A stretch of 64,000 nucleotides of DNA from Steroidobacteraceae bacterium. Lineage in GTDB: Bacteria > Pseudomonadota > Gammaproteobacteria > Steroidobacterales > Steroidobacteraceae. This document shows positions 13,949 through 28,629 of this stretch, piece by piece. The stretch is from NCBI GenBank assembly GCA_965279665.1, contig OZ257256.1, positions 1,475,871 to 1,539,870 on the forward strand, in the 5' to 3' direction. The notes below the pieces were generated by a model. It saw nothing but the letters and a program-made list of their open reading frames with translations. It was not told the DNA's origin and did no database searches. How positions within the stretch are numbered: position 1 is the stretch's first letter; each line of letters begins with the position of its first letter. The position numbers and the translations under genes are program-made.

Positions 13949-16764
13949 TGCGCAGCGTGCAATCGACATTCGCGACTCTCGCGGGGCCCTTCATTCTGGC
14001 TGCATCGCTGACACTCGCCTTCAGCGCCGCGCCATCGTTTGGACAGGTGCCCTCGGCCGAACAGATCGAGCTGCTGCGAACACTAAGTCCGGAAGATCGC
14101 GCAGCGCTGATGCAGCAGCTCGGCATCGGCGATTCTTCGATGGGCGCGAGCGCCGCGGCGAGCAAGGATCGTGACACGGGCAGCGGCGCCGCAAGTCGTG
14201 GTGCCAGCCTCGCAGACCTGCAGCGCCTCGATACGACGTTGAAGGCCGACGACAGCGTCCTGATCGACATCGATTTCATCAAGGCGAAACCTGCAAGAGT
14301 CGAGTCTCCGGGGCCGGGCCTTCCGCCCGTGTCCGTTCCTGGGGAGCCGGCGCCCACATATGAGCCGCAAGAGCGGCTGGAGCTCGAGCGCGTCATTGCA
14401 CTGATCCGGGCCCGCAATCCGTATGTGATCAATCGTACGGGCGCCCTTGAGCTGCCCGGCTTCCTGCCGATCGTCCTGGCGGGGCTTTCCGACGAGCAGG
14501 CGACCCGACGTTTGTCGGTGGAGCCATCATTGCTGAAGCTCGCAGTGAAGGTAACGCGCTTGCCGGTCGCCAAGCAGGGCGTCGCCGCGCTGAAGCCCTT
14601 CGGCTATGACCTGTTCAGCGAATCCCCCTCGACGTTCGCCCCGGTGACGGACGTGCCGGTCCCGAGTGACTACATCGTCGGTGCGGGTGATGAGCTGATG
14701 GTGCAGCTCTATGGCAGCCAGAACCGCAGCTTCAGATTGACTGTGGGTCGGGATGGCCGCGTCAACTTCCCGGAGCTCGGGCCGATTTCCGTAGCGGGCC
14801 AGCGATTCAATGCCGTGGCGGCCAGTCTCGAGTCGCGCGTATCTCGCCAGATGATCGGCGTGCGTGCCTCCGTAAGCATGGGGGACACCCGTTCGATTCG
14901 CGTGTTCGTGCTTGGCGAAGCGAATCGTCCTGGCTCCTACACGATCAGCGGATTGGGCAGCGTCACCACAGCGCTGTTCGCCTCGGGCGGAGTGAAATCA
15001 ATCGGCTCGCTGCGCGATATCCAGCTGAAGCGCCAGGGTGCCGTGATTCGGCGCATCGATCTTTATGATCTGCTGATCCGCGGCGACACCAGCAATGACG
15101 CGAAGCTGCTGCAGGGCGACGTGATCTTCATCCCGCCCGCCGGGCCGACTGCGGCAATCGATGGCGAAGTTCGGCGTCCAGCCGTTTACGAGCTCAAGGG
15201 CGAGACGAATGTTGCGGATCTGGTGGCGCTCGCCGGCGGGCTGACGTCCGAAGCGGATAACAGCCGTGCTGCCGTCGTGCGCATCAATGAGCAGCGTCAG
15301 CGCGTAGTGTTGAACGTGCCGCTGAACACGGCCGAGGGCCGAAGCGAACGACTGCGCAATGGTGACAGCCTGCGCGTGCTGCGGCTTCGCCCAACCCTGG
15401 ATTCCGGCGTCGCGATCGAGGGCTTTGTGTTCCGGCCCGGCGTCGTCGCGTGGCGCGAAGGACTGCGCCTGTCCGATGTGATTCCGTCGGTGGATGATCT
15501 GCGGCCGAACGCGGACCTCAACTATCTGGTGATCCGACGCGAACTCCCTCCCGATCGGCGCGTTGCGGTGCTGTCTGCCGACCTTTCGGCGGCGCTGAGG
15601 GCGCCTGGCTCATCGAGCGATGTCCAGCTCGCGCCGCGGGATCGGATCATCGTGTTCGACGTGGAGTCCGGGCGCCAGCAGGTGCTGGCTCCTTTGATCG
15701 ACGAGCTGAAGAGGCAGTCGCGGCTCGACCGCCCGACGGAGGTCGTCAGTGTGGCGGGGCGAGTGAAGGCTGCCGGCGATTATCCGCTCGAGCCGGGCAT
15801 GCGCATCAGTGACCTGCTGCGCGCCGGCGGCAATCTGCAGGACGCTGCCTACGGAGCGAAGGCGGAGCTCACCAGATATCGTGTCAGTTCCGGGGGGCGT
15901 GAAACCGAACTGATCGAAGTGGATCTGGCGGCCGTGAATCGTGGCGACGCGACCGCAAACGTACTGCTGCAGCCGTTCGACTACCTGAACGTGAAGGAAT
16001 TGCCCGAGTGGGGTGAGCAGGAGCAGGTCACCGTCTCCGGCGAAGTGCGTTTCCCGGGAACTTACCCGATCCGCCGCGGCGAGACGCTGCGCTCCATCCT
16101 CGATCGTGCTGGCGGTCTGACGAGCCTTGCGTTCCCGAGCGGCGCGGTATTCACGCGCGTGGAGCTTCAGCAGCGCGAGCAGCAGCAGATCGACCGGCTC
16201 GCGGAACGCCTGCAGAGCGATCTTGCCGTCGCAGCACTGCAGGGCTCACAGGCCAACCAGGCTGGAGCAGGACAAGCTCTCGCCGTAGGCCAGTCGCTGC
16301 TGAGCCAGTTGAAAGGCGCGAAGGCCGTTGGACGGCTCGTCATCGATCTCGACCGCGTCATCGCCAGCGCCCCGAATTCCGCGAACGACGTCGTGCTGCG
16401 AAGCGGCGATCAGTTGATCATTCCGAAGACGAAGCAGGAAGTCACCGTGATCGGCGAAGTGCAGAACACGACGTCGCATCTGTACCGCGAATCCCTCGGG
16501 CGCGACGACTACATTGCGCTGAGCGGTGGTCTGACTCGGAAGGCCGATGACGGCAGGATCTACGTGGTGCGTGCGGACGGCAGCGTGATTTCGAGCGAGA
16601 GCAGCGGCTGGTTCCGTCGCGGATCGCAGGTCGCGATCAGACCCGGAGACACGATCGTGGCGCCGCTCGATACGGAGCGGCTGCCTACCCTCCCGCTGTG
16701 GCAGGCCGTGACCCAGATTGTCTACAACCTCGCCATTGCGGCTGCGGCCGTGAATTCCTTCTGA
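13948..16764 (+). CDS. large outer-membrane polysaccharide export protein (OPX; Poly_export domain plus multiple SLBB repeats)
   Basis: Non-lipoprotein signal peptide '[32 protein letters not shown]'. '[18 protein letters not shown]' Poly_export motif. Repeated 'GEV..PG.Y....G.(T)L.d.i..AGG' SLBB units. Hydrophobic C-terminal helix '[18 protein letters not shown]'. The ATG at 13948 overlaps the wzi stop; an alternative ATG is at 13930. Confidence 0.85.
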
Positions 16765-16780
16765 ACCCGGAGATCCCGAA

Positions 16781-17737
16781 TTGACGACTGCTAACGCATA
16801 TCCGCGCAGGATCGCCGTGACGGGCGGCGCCGGCTTTCTCGGGTCCCATCTGTGCGCCAGATTGCTGGCGGATGGTCACGAAGTGCTCTGTATCGACAAC
16901 TTCTTCACCGGTCGCCGCAGCAATGTCGCGCACATGCTCGCCAATCCACGGTTCGAGCTCATGCGGCATGACGTCACTTTCCCGCTGTACGTGGAAGTCG
17001 ACGAAATCTACAACCTCGCCTGTCCCGCCTCGCCTATCCACTATCAGTTCGATCCCGTACAGACGACCAAGACCAGCGTGCATGGTGCGATCAACATGCT
17101 GGGGCTCGCCAAGCGCGTCAAGGCCAAGATCTTTCAAGCCTCGACCAGTGAAGTTTACGGGGATCCTGCGGTACATCCCCAGACCGAAAGCTATTGGGGG
17201 AACGTCAATCCGGTCGGGATCCGGTCTTGCTACGACGAGGGCAAGCGATGCGCGGAAACGCTGTTTTTCGACTACTGGCGGCAGCACAAGCTTCGCATCA
17301 AGGTTGCGCGGATCTTCAATACCTACGGCCCGAACATGCACCCGGCCGATGGTCGCGTCGTGTCCAACTTCATCGTTCAGGCGCTTCGTGGCGATCCGAT
17401 CACGGTGTACGGCAAGGGCGATCAGACGCGCGCTTTCTGCTACGTTGATGATCTGATAGAGGGATTCGTACGTCTGATGGCGACGAACGATGACATCACC
17501 GGGCCGATAAACCTCGGTAATCCTGGTGAGTTCACTATTCTCGAGCTCGCGGAACTTGTAATTGGGCTTACCAAATCGCGTTCGACGATAGTATTCGCGC
17601 CGCTACCCAGCGATGACCCGATGCAGCGGAGACCGGATATTGGCATGGCACAGAGTGTGCTCGGCTGGGAGCCCAGGGTTCCACTAGTGGAGGGGCTGGG
17701 CCATACGATCCGTTACTTCAGGGAACTTGTGACTTGA
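16781..17737 (+). CDS. UDP-glucuronate decarboxylase (UDP-xylose synthase)
   Basis: '[16 protein letters not shown]', 'IDNFFTGR', '[15 protein letters not shown]', '[10 protein letters not shown]', '[14 protein letters not shown]' and 'IFNTYGP' match the UXS family throughout. Confidence 0.92.
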
Positions 17738-17744
17738 TCATTCG

Positions 17745-18710
17745 GTGCTCGAAATTGGATTTGGAGCGAGTTGCTTCGCGGGTGCGGAGATGAGCGTCGA
17801 TGCCCCGTCGGGCGTGATCGCGAATACGCTGCTAGCGGAGATCTTTCGCGCGCTGTTGCGCCGATGGTGGATCCCTGCACTCACGGTAATGGTGTGCGCG
17901 GGGCTCGCTGTCTTCTATGCAATCAACGCACCGCGGGTCTACCGTGCAGAGACACTGCTGGTACCCACCGCCGAGGAACGGGTCGGTCTGGGTGGCGGCG
18001 ATCTTGCGCGCTTTGCGTCGCAGTTTAGCGGCTTATCCTCCCTGGTCGGCCTGGCTGGTGGAAGCACGGGTAGCGGCAAGGAGATCGCGATGGCAACGCT
18101 CACATCGCGCGGATTTCAGGCACGCTTGGTCGACGAACTGGGACTGATGCGAGTGTTCTTTGAGGATCGGTGGGATCCAGAAAGCAGATCGTTCCAACCC
18201 TCGTGGACCGGCGCGGTGCCCACAGTCGACGACGCCATAAAGTATTTTAATGAGCAGGTTTTCTCGGTTTCCGAAGATCGGAAGACAGGCCTTCTGCGTC
18301 TGCGGATCGAGTGGTACGACCGCAAGATCGCCGCGGAGTGGGCCAACGAGATCGTTCGACGCATCAACGAGTCGATGCGTGCGCAGGCCAGCGCGGAGGC
18401 AAAGCGGAGCATTGAGTTTCTGGAAGCGGAACTTAAGCGAACGAACAACCTCGAAGTGCAGAGATCGATTTACAGCCTCATGGAAGCGCAGGTAAATCGG
18501 ATCATGCTCGCGAATGTTCGCGAGCAGTACGCGTTCCGGGTGCTGGATTTCGCGGTTCCCCCGTCGGAGCGAAACTCGGTGCGACCACGCAAGGTCCGGA
18601 TAGTGCTTATCGGACTGATGGTCGGGATCGGCCTGGGTGTCGGTCTGATTCTGCTTTTCGAGATAACGCTGCCGCGGCGGAAAGCGCTCGCGGTTGGCAG
18701 CTTGAGGTAG
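17745..18710 (+). CDS. Wzz-like polysaccharide co-polymerase / chain-length determinant without a kinase domain
   Basis: N-terminal TM followed by 'PRVYRAETLLVP'. Long coiled-coil periplasmic region. C-terminal 'RPRKVRIVLIGLMVGIGLGVGLILLF' TM. The start may be ATG 17790. Confidence 0.75.
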   Translation: MLEIGFGASCFAGAEMSVDAPSGVIANTLLAEIFRALLRRWWIPALTVMVCAGLAVFYAINAPRVYRAETLLVPTAEERVGLGGGDLARFASQFSGLSSLVGLAGGSTGSGKEIAMATLTSRGFQARLVDELGLMRVFFEDRWDPESRSFQPSWTGAVPTVDDAIKYFNEQVFSVSEDRKTGLLRLRIEWYDRKIAAEWANEIVRRINESMRAQASAEAKRSIEFLEAELKRTNNLEVQRSIYSLMEAQVNRIMLANVREQYAFRVLDFAVPPSERNSVRPRKVRIVLIGLMVGIGLGVGLILLFEITLPRRKALAVGSLR

Positions 18711-18716
18711 CGCCGC

Positions 18717-19565
18717 GTGGAAGAGGTCGACGGTTTCAAAGCATTCACTCTCCGTTCACGGAGCTGCGCCCGCAGCGTCGCAAGAATCATGTTGAAGCGG
18801 GTTCGGCGGGATCGCAGCGTGGTGGCTGATGAATATCACCGCGGGCACTGGGCTCGGGTCTTGGAGCGTCGCGCGTGGGACGGCGCGTTCAATCTCGAAG
18901 CGTTTCTTGTCGGGGATGACGACCGCGAGATCTTCGCGCGCGCCGAGTCGCGAGTCCATCGAACACGCGTTCAGGATTACTATCGCTATCGTCTTCAAGC
19001 CTTGCCTAAGCTGCTTGAGGAGATGATCGGTGGGCGCGACGGGGTCGTCGAACTTGGGAGCGGATTTGGCTACAACCTCTTTGCGTTGTCGCTGGCCTGG
19101 CCAGGTTCCACGATGACTGGTCTTGAGCTCTCGGAGAATGGACTCGAGGCGGCGGGCGCAATCGCGGGGCATTTTCGCCTCGGCGACAGACTTCAGTTCA
19201 ACCAGATCGACCTCACGGTCCGGGGTCATCCCGGATTCGCAAGCGTTCGAGGGCGACCGGTGTTTACGTTCTTCTGTCTGGAACAGATTCCGTACGATAT
19301 CGAAGCAGTGGTCGCAAACATTCTCGATGCGCAGCCGTCGCGCATCGTGAACATCGAGCCAAGCATCGATATGTTTCGGCCATACCGATTCTCGGACTGG
19401 CCGAACTACCTGTACGTGAAGTCGGTGGACTACCAGACGCGCCTGACAGAAGTGCTAGCTTCGCTGGAGGCTCGTGGACGAATCAGAATCGTCGAGCGCC
19501 GCAGGATGCCGTTCTCGCCGACCATTCAGAACGAGGGTTTAGCAGTCGCATGGGAGCCGGTCTAA
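18717..19565 (+). CDS. class I SAM-dependent methyltransferase
   Basis: Motif I 'VVELGSGFGYNL' and motif II-like 'VFTFFCLEQIP'. It overlaps the next gene. Confidence 0.65.
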   Translation: MEEVDGFKAFTLRSRSCARSVARIMLKRVRRDRSVVADEYHRGHWARVLERRAWDGAFNLEAFLVGDDDREIFARAESRVHRTRVQDYYRYRLQALPKLLEEMIGGRDGVVELGSGFGYNLFALSLAWPGSTMTGLELSENGLEAAGAIAGHFRLGDRLQFNQIDLTVRGHPGFASVRGRPVFTFFCLEQIPYDIEAVVANILDAQPSRIVNIEPSIDMFRPYRFSDWPNYLYVKSVDYQTRLTEVLASLEARGRIRIVERRRMPFSPTIQNEGLAVAWEPV

Positions 19566-20149
19566 TGTCGATCGATGGTCTTGACTATTCTGCAGCCTTT
19601 CGCGCGGCGATTGACGCGGCTCGGGACCGGCTCGCGCGGTTGGTCGTAGAATCGGACCAAGTCGCCGCCGCAGCAGGCCTACTCATCGCGTGTTTCCGAG
19701 CCGGCGGCAAGGTCATGTTCTGCGGCAATGGCGGCTCAGCGGCCGACAGCCAACACCTTGCAGCCGAGTTCATGGGACGCTATCTCAAGGATCGCGATCC
19801 GCTACCGTCGATCGCACTGACCGTGGACACTTCGGCGCTCACGGCCATCGGCAACGACTATGGCTACGAGCAAGTGTTCTCTCGCCAGCTGCGCGGAATC
19901 GGTCGTGGCGGCGACGTCCTGGTCGGAATCTCCACGAGCGGTAACAGCGGGAACGTCGTGCGTGCGTTCGAGGCTGCACGTGAAATGGGCATCTCGACCC
20001 TGGCGCTCACTGGAGCGGGCGGCGGTCTCCTCGCTGATCTGGCCGATATCGCCATCAAGGTGCCGAGTTCGCGAACGAATGAGATTCAGGAGATGCACAT
20101 CATGATCGGCCACATGCTGTGCGGGTTCGTTGAGGACGCTGTTTGCTGA
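19565..20149 (+). CDS. gmhA: D-sedoheptulose-7-phosphate isomerase (SIS domain)
   Basis: 'FCGNGGSAADSQHLAAEF', 'LTVDTSALTAIGNDYGY', 'GISTSGNSGNV' and 'EIQEMHIMIGHMLC'. The ATG at 19565 overlaps the upstream stop (TAATG). An alternative ATG is at 19550. Confidence 0.9.
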   Translation: MSIDGLDYSAAFRAAIDAARDRLARLVVESDQVAAAAGLLIACFRAGGKVMFCGNGGSAADSQHLAAEFMGRYLKDRDPLPSIALTVDTSALTAIGNDYGYEQVFSRQLRGIGRGGDVLVGISTSGNSGNVVRAFEAAREMGISTLALTGAGGGLLADLADIAIKVPSSRTNEIQEMHIMIGHMLCGFVEDAVC

Positions 20150-21330
20150 AACAGGCTGCATTCCTTGTAGGAGGCATGGGAACCCGGCTGGGCGATCTCA
20201 CGAGATCGACACCGAAGCCACTGATCGACGTCGGCGGCAGGCCTTTCATCGACTACCTCATCGACGAGGTGGCTCGACACGGTTTCTCCGAGGTCCTGCT
20301 TCTGGCAGGCTACCTCGGTGAGCAGTTCGTCGCTCACTACGACGGCATGCAGCGGCTGGGCGCCACTATTCGTGTCGTGACCGAGCTGTCCCCCCTCGGT
20401 ACGGGCGGGGCAGTACGCGGCTCTCTTCAGCGGCTCGACCGGCAGTTCCTGCTCGCCAATGGCGATACCTTTTTCGATATCAATCTTCGCGCGCTGAGCG
20501 CGCCGCCGCCAGGCTACCTTACGATGGCGCTGCGCTCTGGGGTGGAAGGGGGGCGCTATGGGCGCGTCACCGCGGACGCAGGTCGAGTTCTGGGCTTTCA
20601 CCCGCCGGTCGACAGGCAGGCCGATCCGATCAACGCGGGCATCTACATCGTTTCCCGGGAGGTCGTGGAAGCGAGACCGGAAGGGCGGTCGTCAATAGAG
20701 CAGGATTGGTTTCCGGAATTGGCGTCTGCCGGACGCATCATCGGTTGTGAATTTGCCGGTTACTTCATCGACATGGGGGTGCCAGAGGATCTTGAACGCG
20801 CGCGGAGGGAACTACCGCTCCGAACCCGCCGGCCCGCGGTGTTCCTCGATCGCGACGGGGTCATCAACGTGGACCGTGGCTACGTGCATCGGCCCGAGGA
20901 GTTCGACTGGATCGATGGAGCCCAAGCTGCGATCAGGCTGTGCAATGACCTCGGCTACTTGGTATTCGTCGTATCGAACCAGGCAGGGGTTGCGCGCGGA
21001 TTTTATGGCGAGCAGGACGTTCGCGACCTGCACCGATGGATACAAGAACAGCTCGCAGTGCATGGCGCCCATGTCGATGCCTTCGAGTTCTGCCCGCACC
21101 ACCCCGATGGACGCATCGAGCCCTATCGGCGCAACTGCAGGCGGCGGAAGCCGGGTTCGGGCATGATCCAAGACGTCCTTGAGCGATGGCCCGTCGATCC
21201 TGCGAAGAGCTTGCTCGTCGGCGACAAGGACAGCGACATGGCGGCAGCGGTCGCTGCCGGGATCCGCGGGCACCAGTTCGAGGGCGGCAATCTGCTCGAC
21301 TTCCTGGCGCCGTACCTCGCGGAACGGTGA
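20143..21330 (+). CDS. bifunctional heptose-1-phosphate nucleotidyltransferase (HddC-like) / D,D-heptose 1,7-bisphosphate phosphatase (GmhB, HAD) fusion
   Basis: The N-terminal half has 'AFLVGGMGTRLGDLTRSTPKPLIDVGGRPF' (NTP-transferase G-loop). The C-terminal half has 'VFLDRDGVIN', 'VSNQAGVARG', 'CPHHPDG', 'RRKPGSGM' and 'VGDKDSDM' (GmhB/HAD motifs I-IV). Confidence 0.85.
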   Translation: MLKQAAFLVGGMGTRLGDLTRSTPKPLIDVGGRPFIDYLIDEVARHGFSEVLLLAGYLGEQFVAHYDGMQRLGATIRVVTELSPLGTGGAVRGSLQRLDRQFLLANGDTFFDINLRALSAPPPGYLTMALRSGVEGGRYGRVTADAGRVLGFHPPVDRQADPINAGIYIVSREVVEARPEGRSSIEQDWFPELASAGRIIGCEFAGYFIDMGVPEDLERARRELPLRTRRPAVFLDRDGVINVDRGYVHRPEEFDWIDGAQAAIRLCNDLGYLVFVVSNQAGVARGFYGEQDVRDLHRWIQEQLAVHGAHVDAFEFCPHHPDGRIEPYRRNCRRRKPGSGMIQDVLERWPVDPAKSLLVGDKDSDMAAAVAAGIRGHQFEGGNLLDFLAPYLAER

Positions 21331-21336
21331 GGGCGC

Positions 21337-22167
21337 TCAGAGCACCGACCGGCCGCCGTCGATTACGATGTTCTGGCCAGTCATGTAGCTCGACGCGTCC
21401 GAGCAGAGAAACTGCACGGCAGATCGGTATTCGTCGCGCATCGCCATGCGCCCCAACGGAATCAGGTCCGACAGGCGGCTGACAAACTCCTCACCCTGCC
21501 CATTGAATACGCCACCGGGTGATAGCGCATTGACGCGGACACCGTGGCGAGCCCAATAGGTCGCGAGGTACTTCGTCAGACCGACCAGCCCGTGCTTGAT
21601 GACCGAGTAAGTCACGGGCTTAACGGGCTGAAGCATCTCGTCGTCGAGATCGTCTCGACGGTAGAGGCGCTGGTCCGGTGCGATCACGGACAGGTCCGAA
21701 GCGATGTTGAGAATCACGCCCTGTCCGCGTCGGGCCATGGATGCCCCAAACGTGCGAGCGCAGAGCATCGCGCCAGTCAGCCCGACATCGATCTCGAGGC
21801 GCCACTGGTTCAGGTCGAAGACTTCGAGTCGGGTGCCATTGGCCACCCCCGGCGTGGCAGAGACCTTGGCGTCGATGGCAGCATTGTTGACCAGGATGTC
21901 GACCCTGCCGGCCAAATCGTGCAACGCGTCTATAGAGGCCAACGAGGTGACATCGAGGCGGTGGCCTTCCACCCGATTGCTGCCGGTTTCCTCCGCGACC
22001 GCACGCGCTGCAGCCTGAGCCCTGTCTTCGGCGATGTCGGCTATCAGCACTCTGGCGCCAAGCGCGGCCAGGGCAGCCGCGTGCTGCGGGCCGAGCAGTC
22101 CAGCGCCACCGGTGACGATCGCTGTGCGGCCTGTGAGGTCGAATTTGCGGTCAGGGGCTGTCGACAT
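21337..22167 (-). CDS. SDR-family oxidoreductase (PtmA-like; paralogue of 30421-31224)
   Basis: 'GRTAIVTGGAGLLG', 'YSVIKHGLVGLTKYLA' (YxxxK). It shares 'SDLSVIAPDQRLY' with 'SIYGIVAPDQRIY' of the other copy. Confidence 0.85.
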   Translation of the reverse strand: MSTAPDRKFDLTGRTAIVTGGAGLLGPQHAAALAALGARVLIADIAEDRAQAAARAVAEETGSNRVEGHRLDVTSLASIDALHDLAGRVDILVNNAAIDAKVSATPGVANGTRLEVFDLNQWRLEIDVGLTGAMLCARTFGASMARRGQGVILNIASDLSVIAPDQRLYRRDDLDDEMLQPVKPVTYSVIKHGLVGLTKYLATYWARHGVRVNALSPGGVFNGQGEEFVSRLSDLIPLGRMAMRDEYRSAVQFLCSDASSYMTGQNIVIDGGRSVL

Positions 22168-22185
22168 GAATGCACCTCGAAGCGA

Positions 22186-22944
22186 CTAGCCTCTGATCTG
22201 CCCACCGTCAGCGACATAGATCGCACCTGTGACGAATCCCGCCCGAGCCGACGCCAGGAACGCCACGATTGCCGCGACTTCCTCCGCAGTTCCGAATCGT
22301 CCGAGTGCGACGTCCTTTTCCAGCATGCTGCGGACACCCTCCGGATCTTTGGCAACGCGCTCCTGCCAACTGCCGCCGTCGAACAAAATGTTCCCTGGCG
22401 CTATCGCATTGATCCGGATGCCTTCCTTCGCCAAAGGGCGCGCCAAGCCGCGGACCGTTGCATTGAGCGCTGCCTTCGCTGCGGAGTAGGTCACCGGCGC
22501 GCCCAGCGCCTCGATACCGCAGATCGAGGATATGCAGACGATAGAGCCGCCACCAGTTGCACGCATCGCCGGTCTGACGGCCGCGATGACGTGCGTCGCC
22601 GACAGTAGATTGATGTCCAGCACGCGCTGCCACTCATTCGCGTCTTCCTCTCCAGGGGGTACCGACCTGCCACTGCCGACGTTGCAGACGGCGATGTCGA
22701 TGCGCCCCCAGCGATCCTCGGCCTCGCGGACGAAACGCGCAGCCTGCTGACGGTCTGTGGTGTCGCATCGGTGCGTTGACGCCGCCGCGCCAATTTGCGC
22801 TTGCGCTACCTCAAGTTGCTCGAGTGTACGAGCGGCGATGGCGACACTCGCGCCTTCAGCCACGAAGGCCCGCGCGATCGCTAGTCCGATGCCACGGCTC
22901 CCGCCTGCGACGATCGCCACCTTGCCTACGAGTTCGAGATTCAT
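22186..22944 (-). CDS. SDR-family oxidoreductase (FabG-like)
   Basis: 'GKVAIVAGGSRGIGLAIA', 'NVGSG' and 'YSAAKAALNATVRGLA'. Confidence 0.85.
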   Translation of the reverse strand: MNLELVGKVAIVAGGSRGIGLAIARAFVAEGASVAIAARTLEQLEVAQAQIGAAASTHRCDTTDRQQAARFVREAEDRWGRIDIAVCNVGSGRSVPPGEEDANEWQRVLDINLLSATHVIAAVRPAMRATGGGSIVCISSICGIEALGAPVTYSAAKAALNATVRGLARPLAKEGIRINAIAPGNILFDGGSWQERVAKDPEGVRSMLEKDVALGRFGTAEEVAAIVAFLASARAGFVTGAIYVADGGQIRG

Positions 22945-23789
22945 AATCGCCGCGCTGCCAGCCAGCCTGCCGTCATCGCTGCATACCCAGCGAGTACGCC
23001 CGCGTGATCACCGTCAGTCGCCCTCGCGGTCTGAAGGATAAAGCGTCCTTCAAACCTGGAGTCGCGGAGCAGCGCGAACGCTCGAGGCAGGTCGGCATTG
23101 CCAGTACCAAGCGGCACCGTGGTGCCACCGAGTACTCGGTCCTTGACATGGACGTTCCGGATGCGAGGTCCATATGCGGAGATCTCCTCGCCGCAGTCGA
23201 AACCCAATGCCGCACTGTTGCCGATATCGTAATTCACACCGAAGCAGTCGACGGGTAGTTGCTCGATGAATCGAGCGAGTTCCTGGGGTCCGTAGTCGCA
23301 CTCAAACGCGACGACAAGTCCGTCGCGCCTGAGGCGATCGGCGCGCGAGCCGAATTCGTTGGCCACCACCTGCTCATGATCGGAACTCGCCATGGCGCCA
23401 GCATCGACGAGAGGTACGACGACGATGCCGATGCCGGCCGCGGCACAGGCATCGAGGACGAGATCGAGCTCTGCGAGCCGCGTGGCACGCTCGGAGCCCG
23501 CGGTTCGCCAGAAGGGGGCCTGCATGAAGATGTCGCCGGTCAATGAGACCGGGCGCACGCCGTGTCGGCGAGTGAGCTCTGCGATCTCGCGCTGGCCCGC
23601 ATCCGTCAGCAAAGGGTTCTCGCGAAACCTCTCATGATCGAGAGTCCACTCGAGCATGCCGAGCCCGAGTGCCTCTGCAGCCGGGAACTCGTCGCGCCAG
23701 TGCGTCCAGGGAAACGCCTGGATGCGCCCGTCGACCAGCGGCGAGAGCCTGCCCTGCATGAAGCCGATTCGGTTGAGACTGCTCATCAC
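22941..23789 (-). CDS. sugar-phosphate isomerase/epimerase (xylose-isomerase-like TIM barrel, UlaE/SgbU-like)
   Basis: 'RIGFMQGRLSP...W..EF..A..LGLGMLEW', 'VAFECDY', 'VNYDIGNS' and 'VHVKDR' are typical of the AP_endonuc_2/TIM-barrel family. Confidence 0.7.
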   Translation of the reverse strand: MMSSLNRIGFMQGRLSPLVDGRIQAFPWTHWRDEFPAAEALGLGMLEWTLDHERFRENPLLTDAGQREIAELTRRHGVRPVSLTGDIFMQAPFWRTAGSERATRLAELDLVLDACAAAGIGIVVVPLVDAGAMASSDHEQVVANEFGSRADRLRRDGLVVAFECDYGPQELARFIEQLPVDCFGVNYDIGNSAALGFDCGEEISAYGPRIRNVHVKDRVLGGTTVPLGTGNADLPRAFALLRDSRFEGRFILQTARATDGDHAGVLAGYAAMTAGWLAARRL

Positions 23790-24556
23790 TGATCCACGGC
23801 GACCAAGCCATTCGCCGTCCAGCCGCCATCAATGAAGATTTCCTGGCCTGTCATGTATGCCGACGCGTCCGAGGCTAGGAAGACCGCTGCACCGGCGATG
23901 TCCTCCGGGTCGCCCCAGCGTCCCAGCAGGGTATGGCTCTGACGTTGCCGGTTCAGCGCAGGATCGTTGAAGCTCCTGTCCGTCATCGCCGTGTGCACAT
24001 AGCCTGGCGCCAGGCTGTTCACCCTGATGCGCTCACCTCCGAGGTCGACCGCGAGAGCGCGAGTGAGGCCTGCGAGTCCCGACTTCGCGGCCACGTAGCC
24101 CGGATTCCCGGGGAATCCCAGCCTCGAATTGATGCTGGTGATGTTGATGATGCTTGCTGCCTTCGAGCGGCGCAGCGCAGGTAGCAGTGCGAGTACCAGT
24201 CGATACGGTGCGATGAGGTCGACCTCGAGAGTCGTGCGCATGCGCTCGATCTCCCTCTCGGCATCCTGTGCGGGCGGCAGGCTGATCGCCGCGGCGTTAA
24301 CGAGGATATCGAGGCGACCCGATGACGAGTCGATCACGCGGCGCACGGCTTGCGGAGCGTCCGCGCTCCCGACGTCCAGCGAAAGGTGCCGAAGCCGCGA
24401 GGTATCGTGGCCGCCGCTGCGGCTGATCGCCAGCACGTCGGCTCCAGCGTTACAGAGGGCGAGCGCGATGGCCGCGCCTATGCCGCGAGAGGCGCCGGTG
24501 ACGACGGCTTGGCGGCCCTCAAGCGGCGGGCACATGGTCCGGTGCAAGTCAGACAT
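23786..24556 (-). CDS. SDR-family oxidoreductase
   Basis: 'GRQAVVTGASRGIGAAIA', 'NAAA' and 'YVAAKSGLAGLTRALA'. Confidence 0.85.
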   Translation of the reverse strand: MSDLHRTMCPPLEGRQAVVTGASRGIGAAIALALCNAGADVLAISRSGGHDTSRLRHLSLDVGSADAPQAVRRVIDSSSGRLDILVNAAAISLPPAQDAEREIERMRTTLEVDLIAPYRLVLALLPALRRSKAASIINITSINSRLGFPGNPGYVAAKSGLAGLTRALAVDLGGERIRVNSLAPGYVHTAMTDRSFNDPALNRQRQSHTLLGRWGDPEDIAGAAVFLASDASAYMTGQEIFIDGGWTANGLVAVDQ

Positions 24557-25250
24557 AGCCGTAACCGCGCATGATGGCCTCGCACAGCCGGATGTCTTCC
24601 GGCCGGTCGATCTGGAACATCTTATGGCGTTCCATCACGGACATGCCGATACGCCCGCCCAGCCGATTCATGGTCTGCCGGAGTTGGGACGGGCGAAACA
24701 CATAGAATGAACCATTCTCCAAGTAGCGCTTCTCGATCTCCTGGCGGCGGCGCCTGTTCCGCCAGTCGTAGTTGACGGACTCGGCGAGACCATCCGCGCT
24801 GACACGCCAGTTGAAGAAGTCCTCCACCTCGCAGACGGTCAGGACGCTGTCCAGCTTTTCCGTCGCCAGAAGCGAGATCGCTTGATCAATGTCCGATGGC
24901 TCGCGGATCGGCGACGTCGCCTGCATCGCGACCACGAGGTCGAACGTCCCGGACTGTCGTTCCCGCGCGTCGAGGGCGTGCAGCCAAGCCGACTCGGAAC
25001 TGGCAGTGTCGCCGGCGATGTCCGGTGGCCGCGGCACTGCCACTGCGCCGAAGGCCTGAGCAGTAGCGAGTATTTCGTCACTGTCGCTCGATACCGCGAC
25101 TTCGGCGATTGCGGCAGACGCGCGCGCCTGCTCGATAGACCAGGCCAGCAGCGGTTTGCCGCAAAGGTCGATGAGGTTCTTGCGGGGGATGCCCTTTGAG
25201 CCTCCGCGGGCTGCAATTACAGCAAGGATGCGCGGGCGCGAATCCTTCAA
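24549..25250 (-). CDS. acylneuraminate (CMP-ulosonic acid) cytidylyltransferase family, copy 1
   Basis: 'ILAVIAARGGSKGIPRKNLIDLCGKPLLAWSI' P-loop-like CTP-binding motif, 'MQATSPIR' and 'NGSFYVF'. Confidence 0.88.
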   Translation of the reverse strand: MKDSRPRILAVIAARGGSKGIPRKNLIDLCGKPLLAWSIEQARASAAIAEVAVSSDSDEILATAQAFGAVAVPRPPDIAGDTASSESAWLHALDARERQSGTFDLVVAMQATSPIREPSDIDQAISLLATEKLDSVLTVCEVEDFFNWRVSADGLAESVNYDWRNRRRRQEIEKRYLENGSFYVFRPSQLRQTMNRLGGRIGMSVMERHKMFQIDRPEDIRLCEAIMRGYGYV

Positions 25251-27169
25251 AGGTATGGCTCCAGCTTGTCGAGCGCCACCCAGAAGCCTTCGCCCAGGTT
25301 CTTGTGCCCCTGCCAGATCTCGGGAATGAAGCTCGCGTGCGGTGCATGGACTTGCATCGTCTCGCCGAGTGCCCGGAAGTCGATCTCACCGTCTCCAACC
25401 TGCAGGCCTTCGCCGTCCACGCCGCGCGCGTCGCCAAGATGATAGTGCGCCGTGTAGGGTCCGAGCGCCGCAATTCCCTGCAGGAAGTCGAATCCGAAGT
25501 GATTGGCCGCAAGCCGGGTATGGGACACATCGACGCACATTCGCAGACTGAGCTCCTCACAAACGTGAGCGGACTCTTCCGGGAGAATGAAGATGTTCTG
25601 GTGCCGCTGCCCCCCAAAATGCCACGGGAAAGGGGCCATCGTCTGCGGTATGAGTTCTACGCCATCGAGGTCAAGCTCGCGAAGGCTGCGAGCGAAGGTC
25701 TCGTACAGGCGGGGCTTCTCGGACCCTGCCAACGGCACGTCGGTAGAGAACCCACCGACGTTTGCCACGATCGGTGGTCGCTCGGTGCCGGGAAAGTAGG
25801 GCTTCAGCGCGCGCGTGATGTCGATGACGCGCTGGGTTTCGCGGATCGAGAACTGACGGTATTCCTCGTCGGCGGAAGCGAGGTCCATCAGTCTGCTCCC
25901 TGAAAACAGTTCCGGCGCGTGTACGACGAATCCTACCGAGTAGGTACCGGAGAAGTACGACGCCGGATCGCGGTCCATGTCCTGATAGCTCAGATGGAAC
26001 TCGATGACGTCGGGCTCGGACCGTGCGATAAATGCGAGGGCATCGTGGTACCGGACCGGCACGCCCCATGGACGCTTGAACCGGTAGCGGCGCAGCGCGC
26101 TGGCGTCGTCCGCGAGATCGGATGCGAAGAAGTAGTCGTCTGCACCCACTTTTCGGTGCAGACGGCGGCCTATGAGGCCCGGCAGGTTGATCGGTGAGAG
26201 TCCTTGGCCCGGGCTTCTGACAATAACGTCGGATTCCTCGACGAGATGACCGGCGGCCAGGTCGCGCGAAGCGACTAGGCTCTTCGCGAGATTCTCTCGA
26301 TTGATCAGTTCTCCCTGACTGAGCGGCCGTTCGCCGTCGACGCTGGCGACCCCCATGGCGCTCTCCACTTCTCGAATGCCAGTGACCAGCGACGCGAACT
26401 CCCCTGGCTCTAGGCTCGCGGCATGGTCAGGACCTTCCATAGTTCGGTCGAGCGTGATGTGCCGTTCTACGATGCAGGCGCCGAGTGCGACGGCGGCCAA
26501 GGTCACCGCGGTACCGCGCTCGTGACCCGAGTAGCCGATGACCGGATGCAGTTCGCGGAGCGTCTCCATGAAGCGCAGGTTGATGTTGTGGAATGCCGCC
26601 GGGTACGTGCTCTGGCAGTGCAGGAGCGCGAATGCCGCCGAGCGGGCACCGAGAAAGTTGACCACCGCCGTGATCTCGGCAAGACGGCTCATCCCGGTCG
26701 AAAGAACGAAAGGCTTGCCCGTGGCTGCGATCGCCCCGAGAAGAGGCAGATTCGTCAGGTCCGCTGATGCGACCTTGTAGGCCGGGACGTCGAAGGATTC
26801 TAGCGCTCGCAGGCTCGAGACGTCCCAAGGCGTGCACAGATATGCGATGCCGCGCTGGGAGCAGTATTCTTTGAGTCTCCGATGCTTTTCCGGAGGCAGT
26901 TCGAACCTGCGCAGCAGGTCGAGCGTGTACTCGACCGAGAGATCGTCCTCACTTCCGGCGAGGCTACGCGCTCGGTAGACTTCCTCGAGCTTGCGCATCT
27001 GGAATTTCGCGCAATCTGCCCGTGCGTCGACTGCAGCATCGATAAGAGAGATGGCCCGATCGAAGTCGCCGTTGTGGTTGTTGCCGACCTCTGCGATGAC
27101 AAAGCACGCTTCGCCAGGGCCGACACTCCGGTCGGCAATCCGCAGTTTGTTCGAAGGAAACTGGGTCAT
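25247..27169 (-). CDS. NeuB-family PEP-condensing ulosonic-acid synthase (NeuB + SAF) fused to a C-terminal xylose-isomerase-like TIM-barrel domain
   Basis: Starts at ATG 27169 ('MTQFPSNK'). The ORF-track extension to 27514 overlaps the upstream gene. NeuB motifs 'FVIAEVGNNHNGD', 'ADCAKFQ', 'YKVASADLTN', 'STGMS', 'LLHCQSTYP' and 'GYSGHE'. SAF-like 'LVASRDLAAGHLVEESDVIVRSPGQG'. A further ~290 aa follows ('IEFHLSY', 'VVHAPE', 'VANVGG', 'CVDVSHT', 'HYHLGD'). Confidence 0.85.
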   Translation of the reverse strand: MTQFPSNKLRIADRSVGPGEACFVIAEVGNNHNGDFDRAISLIDAAVDARADCAKFQMRKLEEVYRARSLAGSEDDLSVEYTLDLLRRFELPPEKHRRLKEYCSQRGIAYLCTPWDVSSLRALESFDVPAYKVASADLTNLPLLGAIAATGKPFVLSTGMSRLAEITAVVNFLGARSAAFALLHCQSTYPAAFHNINLRFMETLRELHPVIGYSGHERGTAVTLAAVALGACIVERHITLDRTMEGPDHAASLEPGEFASLVTGIREVESAMGVASVDGERPLSQGELINRENLAKSLVASRDLAAGHLVEESDVIVRSPGQGLSPINLPGLIGRRLHRKVGADDYFFASDLADDASALRRYRFKRPWGVPVRYHDALAFIARSEPDVIEFHLSYQDMDRDPASYFSGTYSVGFVVHAPELFSGSRLMDLASADEEYRQFSIRETQRVIDITRALKPYFPGTERPPIVANVGGFSTDVPLAGSEKPRLYETFARSLRELDLDGVELIPQTMAPFPWHFGGQRHQNIFILPEESAHVCEELSLRMCVDVSHTRLAANHFGFDFLQGIAALGPYTAHYHLGDARGVDGEGLQVGDGEIDFRALGETMQVHAPHASFIPEIWQGHKNLGEGFWVALDKLEPYL

Positions 27170-27180
27170 CCGGTCACCCG

Positions 27181-28629
27181 CTAGGCGATGGCATCGGCGC
27201 GGCCCGCACTCGTGCCCGCCCCAGCAATGTTGCCAAGCACGGGGGTCGCCGCCGCGGGTAATTCGGACAGCCGGGTGCGCCACGAACGCAGACCGCCGTC
27301 CTCGAACATCACCCTCTCGCAACGGTAGCCGCGACTCGACATGACGTCGAGGACCCGACACTGCTGGAACGGCGGCACGAAGAACATGAAGAACCCGCCG
27401 CCGCCGGCGCCGAGAATCTTGCCGCCGAGGGCGCCCTGGGCGATCGCGGTGTCGTAGATCCCGTCCAGTTCGCCATCGCTGATCATCGGGCTGTCCTGAC
27501 GCTTCAGGACCCATGCCTCATGCAGCAGGCGTCCATAACCGTAGACGTCGCCACGCAGCAGACGACGCTTCATTTCAAGAGTGAGTTCCTTGGTACGGCC
27601 GCGCGACGCAGCCGACTTGGCTCCTGGCGAGAGTAGTCTTGCGCGCTGATCCCGGTGAATGGCACCCGAGTCGTGCTTGCGGCCCGTGTAGCAGAGTAGC
27701 AGGGTCTCTTCGAGTTCCGAGATGGTCTTGGGTTCGAGACGCAGAGGAAAGATCACGTTGTGGTCCGCGGTGAATTCCATGAAGTTGAATCCGCCGAACA
27801 CCGCTGCATATTGATCCTGCCATCCGCCCGGAATGTTTAGGATCAGGCGCTCGGCCTGGAATGCCATTTCCGAGATCTGGTGCTTATCCCAGGGATCCGA
27901 CCGGAATTCGTTGAAGCAACCGATAACAGCCGCAGCGACAGAAGCGGATCCACCAAGCCCGGAACCAACTGGATAGTCAGCCGCCACTTCGATCTCGAAG
28001 CCAAAACCAGGCTGGATCATTTGAATCACCGAAACGATGAGGTCCAGTTCCCCGTTTAGCTCGAGGTCCGCTGGCGAGACCGCTTCGACCGTTCGCTTTA
28101 GGTCGTGAGAGTAGATTCGCACGCGCGAGTCGGTGCGGCGGCGCAGCGTGGCATGGGCATACTTGCGAATTGCGGCATTCATAACCACGCCGCCCTGATC
28201 GACGAAATAGTGTGTCAGGTCGGTTCCGCCGCCGCCGAAGGTGATACGCGCCGGCGCCCTGGCGCGCGCGAAAACTTCCTCCTCGGCGTCCGGACGGAAG
28301 TCGCTGCGGCTGCATAGATCAACGAGGCGGCGCTGGGTGTCCAAGATCGGTACGTGGTGCACGCGGTGGTCCAGCAGTTTCAGTATTTGTTCCCGCGCGG
28401 TGCCAGCAGCGGCCCAGATGAACTCCTGATTCATGAATGCTGCGAGGCTCGCTCCGAGGTCGTTGTCCGTGAGCAGCCGACGGCGAATGTCACCGTCGGT
28501 GATACAACCGACGATGCGGGCGTCGCTGTCGGTCGCGAACAAAATTCCCAGCTGGTTTGCGTTGAGTTGACGAAACGCCTCCTGGATCGTCGCTGCCGCA
28601 GGAATGCACACACTTCTCAACTTCGACAT
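27181..28629 (-). CDS. CBS-pair domain fused to a GHMP sugar kinase (HddA / heptose-7-phosphate kinase-like)
   Basis: The N-terminal ~115 aa form a CBS pair ('ARIVGCITDGDIRRRLL', 'HHVPILDTQRRLVDLCSRSDF'). The kinase part has 'RAPARITFGGGGTDLTHYF', 'DYPVGSGLGGSASVAAAVIG' (GHMP motif II) and 'GGKILGAGGGGFFMFF' (motif III). Confidence 0.85.
   Translation of the reverse strand: MSKLRSVCIPAAATIQEAFRQLNANQLGILFATDSDARIVGCITDGDIRRRLLTDNDLGASLAAFMNQEFIWAAAGTAREQILKLLDHRVHHVPILDTQRRLVDLCSRSDFRPDAEEEVFARARAPARITFGGGGTDLTHYFVDQGGVVMNAAIRKYAHATLRRRTDSRVRIYSHDLKRTVEAVSPADLELNGELDLIVSVIQMIQPGFGFEIEVAADYPVGSGLGGSASVAAAVIGCFNEFRSDPWDKHQISEMAFQAERLILNIPGGWQDQYAAVFGGFNFMEFTADHNVIFPLRLEPKTISELEETLLLCYTGRKHDSGAIHRDQRARLLSPGAKSAASRGRTKELTLEMKRRLLRGDVYGYGRLLHEAWVLKRQDSPMISDGELDGIYDTAIAQGALGGKILGAGGGGFFMFFVPPFQQCRVLDVMSSRGYRCERVMFEDGGLRSWRTRLSELPAAATPVLGNIAGAGTSAGRADAIA

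Follow-up and report, generated by a model that had tools for sequence, protein, structure and literature searches.

Heptose genes of a Steroidobacteraceae bacterium are part of a widespread but unstudied cassette, the probable product of which is a sialic-acid-like surface sugar of ten carbons

The window analysed, a stretch of 64,000 nucleotides from contig OZ257256.1 of a Steroidobacteraceae genome, carries on its plus strand gmhA for sedoheptulose-7-phosphate isomerase (19550..20149; SIS_2, 96.4 bits), followed by a gene for a 395-aa protein (20143..21330) in which an HddC-like sugar-1-phosphate nucleotidyltransferase (about 20152-20817) is joined to a GmhB-type HAD-IIIA heptose-1,7-bisphosphate 7-phosphatase (about 20830-21276). 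This gene order and domain composition, proposed in the initial annotation, was borne out by profile searches of both halves of the fusion. Residues 8-223 matched NTP_transferase (58.8 bits) and residues 331-376 matched Hydrolase_like/HAD_2 in Pfam, while residues 231-375 passed the cut-off of the GmhB model TIGR00213 (151.6 bits, cut-off 149.6) and residues 4-219 matched the HddC model NF049965 at 111 bits, below its equivalog cut-off of 300. The solved structures nearest to the C-terminal half were those of E. coli GmhB (3l8e/2gmw, 131.1 bits). GmhA gave a full-length match to TIGR00441 (208.9 bits, NCBIfam cut-off 209.45) and scored 213.6 bits against NF010546 (NCBIfam cut-off 276). Two in-frame ATGs, at 19550 and 19565, are usable as its start, the latter overlapping the stop of an upstream methyltransferase ORF as TAATG. 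The fusion gene overlaps the gmhA stop by 7 nt from a TTG start at 20143, and the N-terminus given by this start was kept in homologues; the recorded start (P0001, 384 aa) would remove part of the glycine-rich loop, which, like the HAD aspartates D236 and D238, was invariant or nearly so among 20 homologues.

Fused proteins of this kind were found to be widespread. Thus, all of the best 120 database matches were 368-415 aa long with at least 56% identity, and the best 80 of 581 relatives in one-genome-per-species contigs were all full-length, which places the complete fusion in at least 80 species genomes. It occurred in several different heptose gene clusters, NeuB-free ones included, namely Halioglobus-type loci with GT4 genes and plain sets of a GHMP kinase, gmhA and the fusion (L080). 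The fusion is therefore a common architecture, ordinary when taken alone, and the earlier description of the pathway as rewired did not hold. No HddC/GmhB fusion was described in the literature searched, as judged by titles and abstracts with mostly open-access coverage.

The ORF overlapping gmhA (18717..19565, plus strand) encodes a putative class I SAM-dependent methyltransferase of 282 aa. It had no Pfam or NCBIfam match at default thresholds and only a sub-threshold Pfam match to Methyltransf_12 (E = 0.0015, residues 111-201), and its translation shows a glycine-rich loop. An AlphaFold model (pLDDT 84.6) was compared with known structures by Foldseek, and the matches listed were SAM methyltransferases or methyltransferase-fold enzymes with E values from 5.7e-10 to ~5e-8, alpha-keto-acid C-methyltransferases included, at TM ~0.5 and probability 1.00. 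A Rossmann-like class I SAM methyltransferase fold was thereby supported, in agreement with the original call. Homologues at 44-76% identity were present in loci L002, L011, L027 and L036, and six more fusion loci held homologues at 22-28% identity, so that this gene, distant relatives included, recurs in heptose clusters at 10 of 80 loci; no homology was detectable to the methyltransferases of the aquatic loci L128 and L141. Possibly the enzyme tailors the heptose or an ulosonic acid.

The remaining enzyme of heptose activation is encoded on the minus strand (27181..28629) as a 482-aa protein in which a CBS pair precedes an HddA-like GHMP kinase (CBS, GHMP N and GHMP C domains in Pfam). It matched HddA NF049969 at 242.8 bits, below the equivalog cut-off of 600 but by far the best family, and its nearest solved relatives were heptose kinases (4usk, 212.5 bits; 3k85, 207.7 bits; 4n3o, 193.6 bits). 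The gene is the first of an operon, and 11 nt separate it from the downstream ATG (27169) of a second fusion gene (25247..27169, minus strand), the 640-aa product of which combines a NeuB-type phosphoenolpyruvate-condensing ulosonic-acid synthase, a SAF domain and a metal-dependent sugar isomerase/epimerase-like TIM barrel (Pfam: NeuB 278.3, SAF 37.3 and AP_endonuc_2 62.9 bits).

This NeuB-SAF-TIM protein scored below the cut-offs of both NeuB_NnaB (321.2 bits, cut-off 399.65) and the PseI equivalog (225.1 bits, cut-off 340.25), and in an alignment with the Neisseria enzyme its NeuB domain retains the catalytic residues. In that enzyme Arg314, within the SAF domain, contacts the N-acetyl group of the substrate. 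The position, which is the residue changed in entries 4ipi and 4ipj, is Ser in NeuB-SAF-TIM and invariant as such in 7 of 7 family members, in contrast with Arg in all three LegI-like or PseI-like synthases compared (from this window, L009 and L014). The TIM domain was modelled with a pLDDT of 83.7, and its nearest folds were ketose 3-epimerases, UlaE, L-rhamnose isomerase and endonuclease IV, all at TM ~0.6; no specific reaction could be assigned from the fold. Candidate metal-ligand acidic and His positions were invariant; we take these to be the usual metal ligands of the TIM fold, an assignment of our own that was not aligned to a solved structure.

Downstream on the same strand follow a CMP-ulosonic-acid synthetase (24549..25250; CTP_transf_3, 85.2 bits; PseF TIGR03584, 119.6 bits, below the cut-off of 205.7), a classical SDR (23786..24556; Pfam and synteny), a stand-alone xylose-isomerase-like TIM-barrel protein (22941..23789; AP_endonuc_2, 81.2 bits, with a weak match of 28.3 bits to L-ribulose-5-phosphate 3-epimerase) and two further classical SDRs (22186..22944, adh_short_C2, 189.2 bits; 21337..22167, adh_short_C2, 141.6 bits). 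In cassette loci the TIM-barrel gene was syntenic and always just ahead of the last two SDR genes, the former of which was likewise syntenic and the latter conserved at 45-87% identity. This last gene of the operon is convergent with the HddC-GmhB fusion gene across a 6-bp gap. A promoter and terminator scan of 16500-29000 gave nothing above shuffled expectation.

The association of these genes was examined in metagenome contigs scanned with seven NeuB-TIM proteins, from which 608 relatives were recovered and the best 78 of the 608 loci were kept; with L147 left out (52% identity, threshold 55%), 77 loci remained, 47 of which had at least 1500 bp upstream. Among these 47 loci, chosen by way of NeuB-SAF-TIM, the CBS-kinase gene lay directly upstream of the synthase in 46 and about 600 bp away in the other. 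The GHMP kinase was accordingly where the initial annotation had put it, CBS-fused and first in the NeuB-fusion operon on the minus strand, but since adjacency to NeuB-TIM is the conserved state it cannot be called exiled. An architecture like that of the window (kinase, NeuB-TIM, CMP-transferase and further genes) was found in 26 loci, and of the 9 with enough flank, 5 had the fused hddC-gmhB no more than 10 kb away. In a second, aquatic architecture gmhA followed NeuB-TIM directly (31 loci) and a separate nucleotidyltransferase gene directly preceded that of the kinase (17 of 18 loci with enough flank), such that gmhB, hddC, kinase, neuB-TIM and gmhA were consecutive genes of one operon. The Pfam order in L128 was HAD phosphatase, NTP_transferase, CBS-GHMP, NeuB-SAF-TIM, SIS and CTP_transf_3; the L141 operon was similar and had genes for a class III aminotransferase, a VOC protein and a methyltransferase where the window has the SDR gene at 23786-24556. 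No HddC or GmhB match was seen in 45 of the 77 loci, most of which were short contigs.

Starting from the fusion instead, pieces of the NeuB-TIM operon at more than 50% identity were found in 14 of 80 fusion-bearing species loci, and the fusions of these 14 loci fell within one clade (FastTree; support values not given). Six of the eight clade members without the operon in the flank had NeuB-TIM elsewhere in the genome, and the gene was absent from two control genomes outside the clade. One genome with NeuB-TIM at 49% identity had no HddA-like kinase at E <= 1e-20, its contig ending beside the gene. The carriers included cultivable Bradyrhizobium species, and gmhA was missing from the flank of most Bradyrhizobium loci. 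In the loci from genomes, a CBS pair was seen in the kinases beside NeuB-TIM; kinases of other heptose clusters were mostly 330-371 aa and too short for such a pair, and that of L069 (444 aa) was without one. These results place the heptose genes in a widespread, unstudied gene cassette.

Whole-genome profile searches identified the gmhA of the window as the sole good GmhA match (runner-up 22.5 bits), the CBS-kinase as the only HddA-like match (runner-up 20.9 bits) and the fusion as the sole GmhB above cut-off. HldE was absent from the genome, the best match to rfaE domain I, the ribokinase-like kinase, scoring 34.4 bits against a cut-off of 345. With no other gmhA, no other HddA-like kinase and no HldE, the heptose route in this genome is confined to the cassette.

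On balance we favour a reading in which a single conserved cassette of some ten genes would condense heptose with phosphoenolpyruvate and CMP-activate a predicted C10 ulosonic acid, with gmhA, the HddC-GmhB fusion gene and the CBS-kinase gene serving as its feeder branch and not as a stand-alone GDP-heptose supply. This reading rests on the linkage of kinase and synthase, the position of heptose genes inside the NeuB-TIM operon, the lack of another gmhA or HldE in the genome and the Ser at the Arg314 position. The end product of the cassette would probably be a ten-carbon sialic-acid-like surface sugar. The fate of the activated heptose, previously called unexplained, has on the evidence of cassette linkage a likely answer, namely that the synthase encoded next to these genes draws its substrate from it. 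In the proposed route GmhA would convert sedoheptulose 7-phosphate to D-glycero-D-manno-heptose 7-phosphate, the CBS-kinase would phosphorylate C1, the C-terminal half of the fusion would remove the 7-phosphate and the N-terminal half would make an NDP-heptose, most likely GDP-heptose. The heptose would next be freed from the nucleotide, perhaps being tailored en route by the two TIM barrels and three SDRs; to our knowledge, release of the sugar from its nucleotide precedes condensation in every known bacterial sialic-acid-type pathway. The NeuB domain would then condense the heptose with phosphoenolpyruvate and the neighbouring cytidylyltransferase would add CMP to the product, predicted to be a 3-deoxy ulosonic acid that has ten backbone carbons and lacks a 5-acetamido group. 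The enzyme families, the fusion and its spread, the conserved linkage and the uniqueness of these heptose genes within the genome are observed, whereas the choice of nucleotide, the enzyme that releases the sugar, the sequence of tailoring and the product are what we infer. Several observations weigh against the feeder-branch reading, which leaves the purpose of nucleotide activation of the heptose without explanation: the cassette has no recognisable releasing enzyme, the HddA and HddC scores are below cut-off, one genome with a more distant NeuB-TIM has no HddA-like kinase match, many metagenomic loci show neither HddC nor GmhB, and most Bradyrhizobium loci have no gmhA in the flank.

A more far-reaching version is offered tentatively, and we lean somewhat against its being right in full. 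According to this version the cassette would be the first genetically defined C10 sialic-acid-like route, in which the NeuB-fused TIM barrel stands in for NeuC, LegG or PseG and frees the heptose of GDP-D-glycero-D-manno-heptose, condensation with phosphoenolpyruvate gives a 3-deoxy-dec-2-ulosonic acid, and cycles of SDR oxidation, TIM-barrel action and SDR reduction follow. Some lineages might add an amino group or a methyl group to the product (the latter possibly at C3, through the protein resembling alpha-keto-acid methyltransferases) before CMP activation for capsule or O-antigen in soil and water bacteria, many Bradyrhizobium among them.

The main rival, and in our judgement a rather unlikely one, holds that the locus supplies two donors to one glycan unit, GDP-heptose passing to capsule through an unrecognised non-GT9 glycosyltransferase while NeuB-TIM makes a C9 Kdn-like acid from mannose or mannose 6-phosphate. 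Conserved linkage would fit equally well if GDP-heptose and a Kdn-like C9 acid were two donors invariably used side by side. The occurrence of the fusion in NeuB-free clusters is in keeping with this rival, as is the lack of any NeuC-, LegG- or PseG-type releasing enzyme, or other nucleotide-sugar hydrolase, in the cassette; mannose phosphates could moreover come from PGI, ManC and a phosphomannomutase, all encoded in the window, and there are also a GT2 gene and two candidate transferases that are uncharacterised. Genes of separate sugar pathways are, however, usually grouped by pathway, whereas in the aquatic operons gmhB, hddC, kinase, neuB-TIM, gmhA and the CMP-transferase gene are consecutive, and those operons examined encode no other aldose supply. 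Adjacency of kinase and synthase, moreover, outlasts rearrangement of everything else, and the CBS pair of the kinases beside NeuB-TIM, for which most other heptose kinases in the genome loci are too short, also speaks against two independent donors.

Supply of GDP-heptose to the LPS core by an ordinary pathway that merely lies within a capsule locus appears improbable. As noted in the initial annotation, no GT9-like heptosyltransferase is present in the locus: PF01075 was matched by none of the 61 window ORFs scanned, a search in which non-GT9 heptosyltransferases are not recognisable by sequence. Capsule heptosyltransferases are often not GT9 proteins, and the absence of GT9 says little either way. 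The genome as a whole has one GT9 match (143.8 bits to PF01075), which together with the lack of an ADP-heptose route (no HldE, no second gmhA) would suit a core function. This protein, however, is encoded about 680 kb away and falls below every heptosyltransferase equivalog cut-off (HepI, 114 bits against 185.3; HepIII, 103.9 bits against 170.2), GT9 core heptosyltransferases use ADP-L,D-heptose and not GDP-D,D-heptose, and the conserved linkage with NeuB-TIM would be left unaccounted for.

Most improbable of the three is a ManC- or PtmE-like role of the N-terminal domain of the fusion, which would then activate a hexose or hexosamine 1-phosphate, for example to GDP-GlcNAc for the ordinary Leg-like operon that adjoins the cassette (28768-35461). 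The domain scored slightly higher with a mannose-1-phosphate guanylyltransferase model (134.5 bits) than with the HddC model and, among solved structures, nearly as well with human GMPPB (92.7 bits) as with HddC 6jq8 (94.6 bits), and no PtmE-like gene was found in the Leg-like operon by Pfam or NCBIfam. Against this role stand the other half of the chain, a GmhB above its cut-off, and the translational coupling of the fusion gene to gmhA. In addition, a separate ManC (48182-49603) covers mannose-1-phosphate, a UDP-based Leg route could draw on a PglF-like dehydratase (46158-48146), and in Bradyrhizobium loci the fusion occurs alongside a different protein, of CBS + NTP_transferase type, that is encoded within a Leg-like operon.

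The locus shares with the GDP-heptose pathway its four enzyme families and presumably its four reactions, and the nearest solved relatives of the kinase, the phosphatase domain and the transferase domain are heptose-pathway enzymes. It differs in the fusion of steps 4 and 3 within a single chain, in the CBS pair of the kinase, in the location of the genes inside a NeuB/CMP-transferase operon or convergent to one, in the lack of a recognisable heptosyltransferase and in HddA and HddC scores that stay below the equivalog cut-offs. HldE, the bifunctional protein of the ADP-heptose pathway, offers a precedent for two non-consecutive heptose-activation steps in one protein but with other folds and steps, being a ribokinase-like kinase joined to a cytidylyltransferase-like domain. 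The proposed sequence of nucleotide sugar, free aldose, phosphoenolpyruvate condensation by a NeuB-family enzyme and CMP activation is that of the Neu5Ac (NeuC/NeuB/NeuA), legionaminic and pseudaminic pathways; unlike these, the cassette encodes a heptose precursor in place of a 2-acetamido hexose, its core is without a hydrolase of the types named above, an aminotransferase or an acetyltransferase, and its synthase is the TIM-fused form described here. The Kdn pathway of Bacteroides thetaiotaomicron comprises Kdn-9-P synthase, a Kdn-9-P phosphatase that is KdsC-like rather than GmhB-like, and CMP-Kdn synthetase. It resembles the cassette in having a NeuB-family synthase for an amino-free sugar, a HAD phosphatase and then CMP activation, and differs in needing no anomeric kinase or nucleotidyltransferase and in its C9 product.

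Characterised pathways to sialic-acid-like sugars all start, as far as we know, from six-carbon precursors. Bradyrhizose, a C10 sugar of photosynthetic Bradyrhizobium, has no carboxyl group. As a product of the cassette it was rejected, being assigned, in the accessible text of its source, to a different 11-gene cluster with a dTDP-glucose dehydratase (PMC4743980), and the carriers here are other Bradyrhizobium species. Mass spectrometry, so far the sole evidence for sialic-acid-like sugars of this size, has revealed C10 ulosonic acids in Magnetospirillum gryphiswaldense, and the accessible portions of both sources name no biosynthetic genes and assign no pathway to them (PMC8157484; bioRxiv 10.64898/2026.04.20.719630). 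As reported in those portions, they share with the predicted product a CMP-activated alpha-keto-acid form and a backbone of more than nine carbons, but they carry two N-acetyl groups and one O-acetyl group, in contrast with a cassette core that is without an aminotransferase, and are not the sugar predicted here. Literature searches with mostly open-access coverage, supplements excluded, returned nothing under C10 ulosonic acid names and no described pathway joining heptose with NeuB or an ulosonic acid. To these mass spectrometric hints, with which genes have so far not been linked in the accessible text, the cassette adds a concrete and widespread candidate. Given relatives of the fused synthase in 608 metagenomic stretches and cultivable Bradyrhizobium carriers, the question is directly testable; annotation of the locus as a GDP-heptose supply beside an orphan NeuB operon would miss a single pathway.

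Farther upstream in the window, an extended SDR of 318 aa (16781-17737) was considered as an NDP-heptose 4,6-dehydratase or other heptose enzyme and rejected, being identified as a UDP-glucuronate decarboxylase (425.7 bits to human UXS1). A gene of this kind adjoins hddC in four aquatic loci.

The genome is a single 4.39-Mb contig, of which the window occupies 64 kb with a G+C content of 60-69% (2-kb windows), and the window contains a large capsule or O-antigen locus. Gene order, taken from Pfam and NCBIfam scans of 61 window ORFs, begins with sugar-nucleotide enzymes, followed by two Wzi proteins and a Wza-like exporter, an extended SDR (318 aa, 16781-17737, plus strand), a Wzz-like protein, a 282-aa ORF to which these scans gave no family (18717-19565, plus strand), gmhA (19550-20149, plus strand) and the nucleotidyltransferase-phosphatase fusion of 395 aa (20143-21330, plus strand). 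Convergent with the gmhA-fusion side is a seven-gene minus-strand operon comprised of a CBS-GHMP kinase (27181-28629), a NeuB-SAF-TIM fusion (25247-27169), a cytidylyltransferase (24549-25250), an SDR (23786-24556), a TIM barrel (22941-23789) and two more SDRs (22186-22944 and 21337-22167). A legionaminic-acid-like operon (28768-35461) diverges from the kinase gene, with transferase and polymerase-like genes beyond it. The two Wzi paralogues and the exporter (9800-11311, 12434-13948 and 13930-16764, plus strand) lie ahead of the gmhA-side sugar genes, and the exporter is unusually long (944 aa), having several SLBB domains in addition to Poly_export.

All of the elements named in the initial annotation were present, i.e., gmhA, the fusion and the CBS-kinase of the NeuB operon. 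In profile searches, the C-terminal half of the fusion was confirmed as GmhB (151.6 bits, cut-off 149.6) and the N-terminal half was HddC-like, as claimed, at 111 bits, which is below the HddC cut-off of 300; the best solved relative of this half was Yersinia HddC (94.6 bits). The score of GmhA against TIGR00441 (208.9 bits) fell half a bit short of the cut-off (209.45). Heptose kinases were the best solved relatives of the CBS-kinase (212.5, 207.7 and 193.6 bits), which scored 242.8 bits against the HddA equivalog without reaching its cut-off of 600. The best match of its CBS pair was that of KpsF/GutQ arabinose-5-phosphate isomerases (27.6 bits), and such a pair on the kinase would suit feedback control of a committed step. 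A whole-genome search detected no HldE, and it found gmhA, GmhB above cut-off and an HddA-like kinase nowhere in this genome but in the cassette. The reading frames of the 282-aa ORF, gmhA and the fusion are tightly coupled, the stop of the first overlapping one of the candidate starts of gmhA and the TTG start of the fusion overlapping the gmhA stop by 7 nt. This TTG, at 20143, gives the N-terminus conserved among fusion homologues. The protein on record (P0001, 384 aa) starts 11 residues later (window 20143-20176) and, by comparison of sequences, would lack the initial strand and some of the glycine-rich nucleotide loop, features retained in every homologue.

Relatives of the fusion were numerous. 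A search of 5.8 billion proteins, from which 8000 candidates were scored, gave 4913 matches with E <= 0.001, the best 120 of which were all 368-415 aa long with at least 56% identity and at least 92% query coverage. At least 581 relatives were found in one-genome-per-species contigs; each of the best 80 matched at least 372 of the 395 residues, and their sources included Bradyrhizobium, Reyranella, Azospirillum, Halioglobus, Ensifer and many uncultured bacteria. From rough gene prediction, clustering and Pfam runs on cluster representatives, several contexts emerged among these 80: the NeuB-TIM operon (14 loci); a set in which a B12-radical-SAM enzyme and an aldo-keto reductase accompany E1/transketolase-like pairs plus a GDP-mannose-dehydratase-like gene; clusters of the Halioglobus type, holding genes for GT4, MBOAT and AsnB; and plain sets of kinase, gmhA and fusion. 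Cultivable Bradyrhizobium strains are among the carriers of the cassette (L008, L014, L027 and L036). Given so many full-length relatives in several contexts, the fusion is a regular component of heptose gene clusters rather than a local oddity, contrary to the proposal that it rewires the pathway. What had been observed in the window was correct, and its interpretation was partly supported; the fusion alone is ordinary, and interest attaches to its link with the synthase. The second context was seen in Reyranella-type loci (L015, L019, L030, L034, L039, L040, L045, L049, L051, L054, L056, L066 and others), which also hold a plain GHMP kinase and appear to encode an uncharacterised route to a branched heptose or one with an extended chain.

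The linkage was evident when loci were collected by the synthase. Seven NeuB-TIM proteins, in which the ulosonic-acid synthase is joined to a TIM barrel, were aligned, and a scan of metagenome contigs with this alignment found 608 relatives. The best 78 loci were retained, less one (L147, 52% identity) that a threshold of 55% excluded. Among the 47 of the remaining 77 loci with at least 1500 bp upstream, the CBS-kinase was directly upstream on the same strand in 46 and about 600 bp away in the other. Contrary to the earlier suggestion, the kinase is not exiled. In 26 loci arranged like the window, the synthase was followed by the cytidylyltransferase; the fused gene was present in 5 of 9 such loci with at least 9 kb downstream, and at least one of the other 4 has it just past the flank (L106 and L023 are parts of one contig). 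In a second architecture, noted in 31 loci of lower-G+C DNA, gmhA directly followed the synthase and a separate nucleotidyltransferase was immediately 5' of the kinase in 17 of 18 loci with enough upstream DNA. Phosphatase and transferase in operons of this kind were separate genes in reaction order; by Pfam, one (L128) read HAD phosphatase, NTP_transferase, CBS-GHMP kinase, NeuB-SAF-TIM, SIS isomerase and cytidylyltransferase, and another (L141) was similar. The same need is thus served in two ways, of which the window's fusion is one. Across the 77 loci, the fused form was found in 9, both separate genes in 10, the transferase only in 13 and neither in 45, most of the last being short contigs.

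The same association was apparent from the fusion side. In a midpoint-rooted FastTree tree of 80 fusions and that of the window, printed without support values, all 15 operon-linked fusions fell in one clade of 23. Six of the 8 members with no operon within the 10-kb flank encoded the synthase TIM domain at another site in the genome, at 69-73% identity and as part of 646-757-aa open frames; the genomes of the other two were only 3.4 and 2.0 Mb. The domain was absent from two control genomes of other clades. Three matches to it occurred among 400 further genomes sampled evenly from the phylum. The first (71% identity) lay no more than a few kb from the kinase (60%) and the fusion (52%), and the third (35% identity), in a frame of 399 aa, probably represents a different protein. 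The second (49-53% identity) is a real exception to the kinase linkage: its genome (G052), 98% complete, had no HddA-like kinase at E <= 1e-20, although the contig terminates next to the gene. Some NeuB-TIM proteins may form a subfamily that does not draw on heptose. The gene concerned (contig C42, L170:9969-12224, minus strand) encodes a more distant NeuB-SAF-TIM fusion directly downstream of a cytidylyltransferase gene cut by the contig end.

Inferred from enzyme families, the heptose branch would supply a sugar that is freed from its nucleotide, condensed with PEP and activated with CMP, since all known bacterial sialic-acid-type pathways proceed in that way. The expected product is a 3-deoxy ulosonic acid with ten carbons. 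Epimerisation or deoxygenation by way of keto intermediates is the probable role of the SDRs and TIM barrels. In one aquatic relative (L141:13208-15722), one of the window SDRs gives way to a class III aminotransferase, a glyoxalase/VOC protein and a methyltransferase, which suggests reduction of a keto group in one lineage and its amination in another, and a variant of the sugar with added amino and methyl groups. Alignment with the Neisseria enzyme spans the window NeuB domain, which retains the residues that we take to be catalytic in that enzyme. Arg314 of the Neisseria enzyme, changed in entries 4ipi and 4ipj according to their sequences, presumably contacts the substrate N-acetyl group; this position is Ser in the window and in 7 of 7 family members and Arg in LegI-like and PseI-like synthases of the window, L009 and L014. 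The substitution fits a substrate that would lack a 2-acetamido group, e.g., heptose. The modeled TIM domain (pLDDT 83.7) was predicted to resemble ketose 3-epimerases, UlaE, L-rhamnose isomerase and endonuclease IV (TM about 0.6), and acidic and His positions, which we assigned as the usual metal ligands of the fold without alignment to a solved structure, were invariant in 16 sequences.

The strongest rival to a heptose-fed synthase is a two-donor reading, in which a single conserved glycan unit receives sugar from both GDP-heptose and a nine-carbon Kdn-like acid; no heptose-releasing enzyme was identified in the cassette. A weaker alternative is that the heptose genes supply a GT9 protein. 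The window was rightly said to lack a GT9 gene (61 ORFs scanned), and the one GT9-family protein of the genome, about 680 kb away (C1:794339-795070; L001:1342-2451, minus strand), scored below all heptosyltransferase equivalog cut-offs. It is the single GT9 protein of a genome that is nevertheless without HldE and without gmhA outside the capsule locus. Also weaker is the reading of the transferase domain as ManC- or PtmE-like: the Leg-like operon of the window has no CBS plus NTP_transferase gene, but the window has a separate ManC, and Bradyrhizobium loci hold both the fusion and, in their Leg-like operons, a 348-363-aa protein with a CBS pair and NTP_transferase (Pfam shown for L014) that we take to be similar to Campylobacter PtmE (L008, L012, L013, L014, L018, L021, L023, L025, L026 and L028, at about 16.5-18.3 kb in each). 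In the literature, most subscription journals lying outside the search, neither a heptose-fed NeuB pathway nor an HddC-GmhB fusion was found. The link between fusion and synthase differs from described pathways as a variant of known pathway kinds. C10 ulosonic acids were detected in Magnetospirillum by mass spectrometry, in the portions consulted without naming of genes (PMC8157484; bioRxiv 10.64898/2026.04.20.719630), and a C10 marker fragment for DMB-labelled acids is described in PMC8157484.

The 282-aa ORF gave methyltransferase matches below threshold only, and its predicted fold matched class I SAM methyltransferases, in agreement with the initial annotation. Alpha-keto-acid C-methyltransferases (4m6x/4kib, 8r4z and 8rxg) were among the best fold matches of the model, at a TM of only about 0.5. 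A 3-deoxy-2-ulosonic acid belongs to the alpha-keto acids and its C3 is free; the modeled likeness is offered as a lead only. The extended SDR at 16781-17737, which lies three genes ahead of gmhA, is identified by its match to human UXS1 (425.7 bits) as a UDP-glucuronate decarboxylase, and from this assignment the glycan probably contains xylose. A homologue with 72-76% identity was located directly upstream of hddC in four aquatic loci (L118, L124, L151 and L154).
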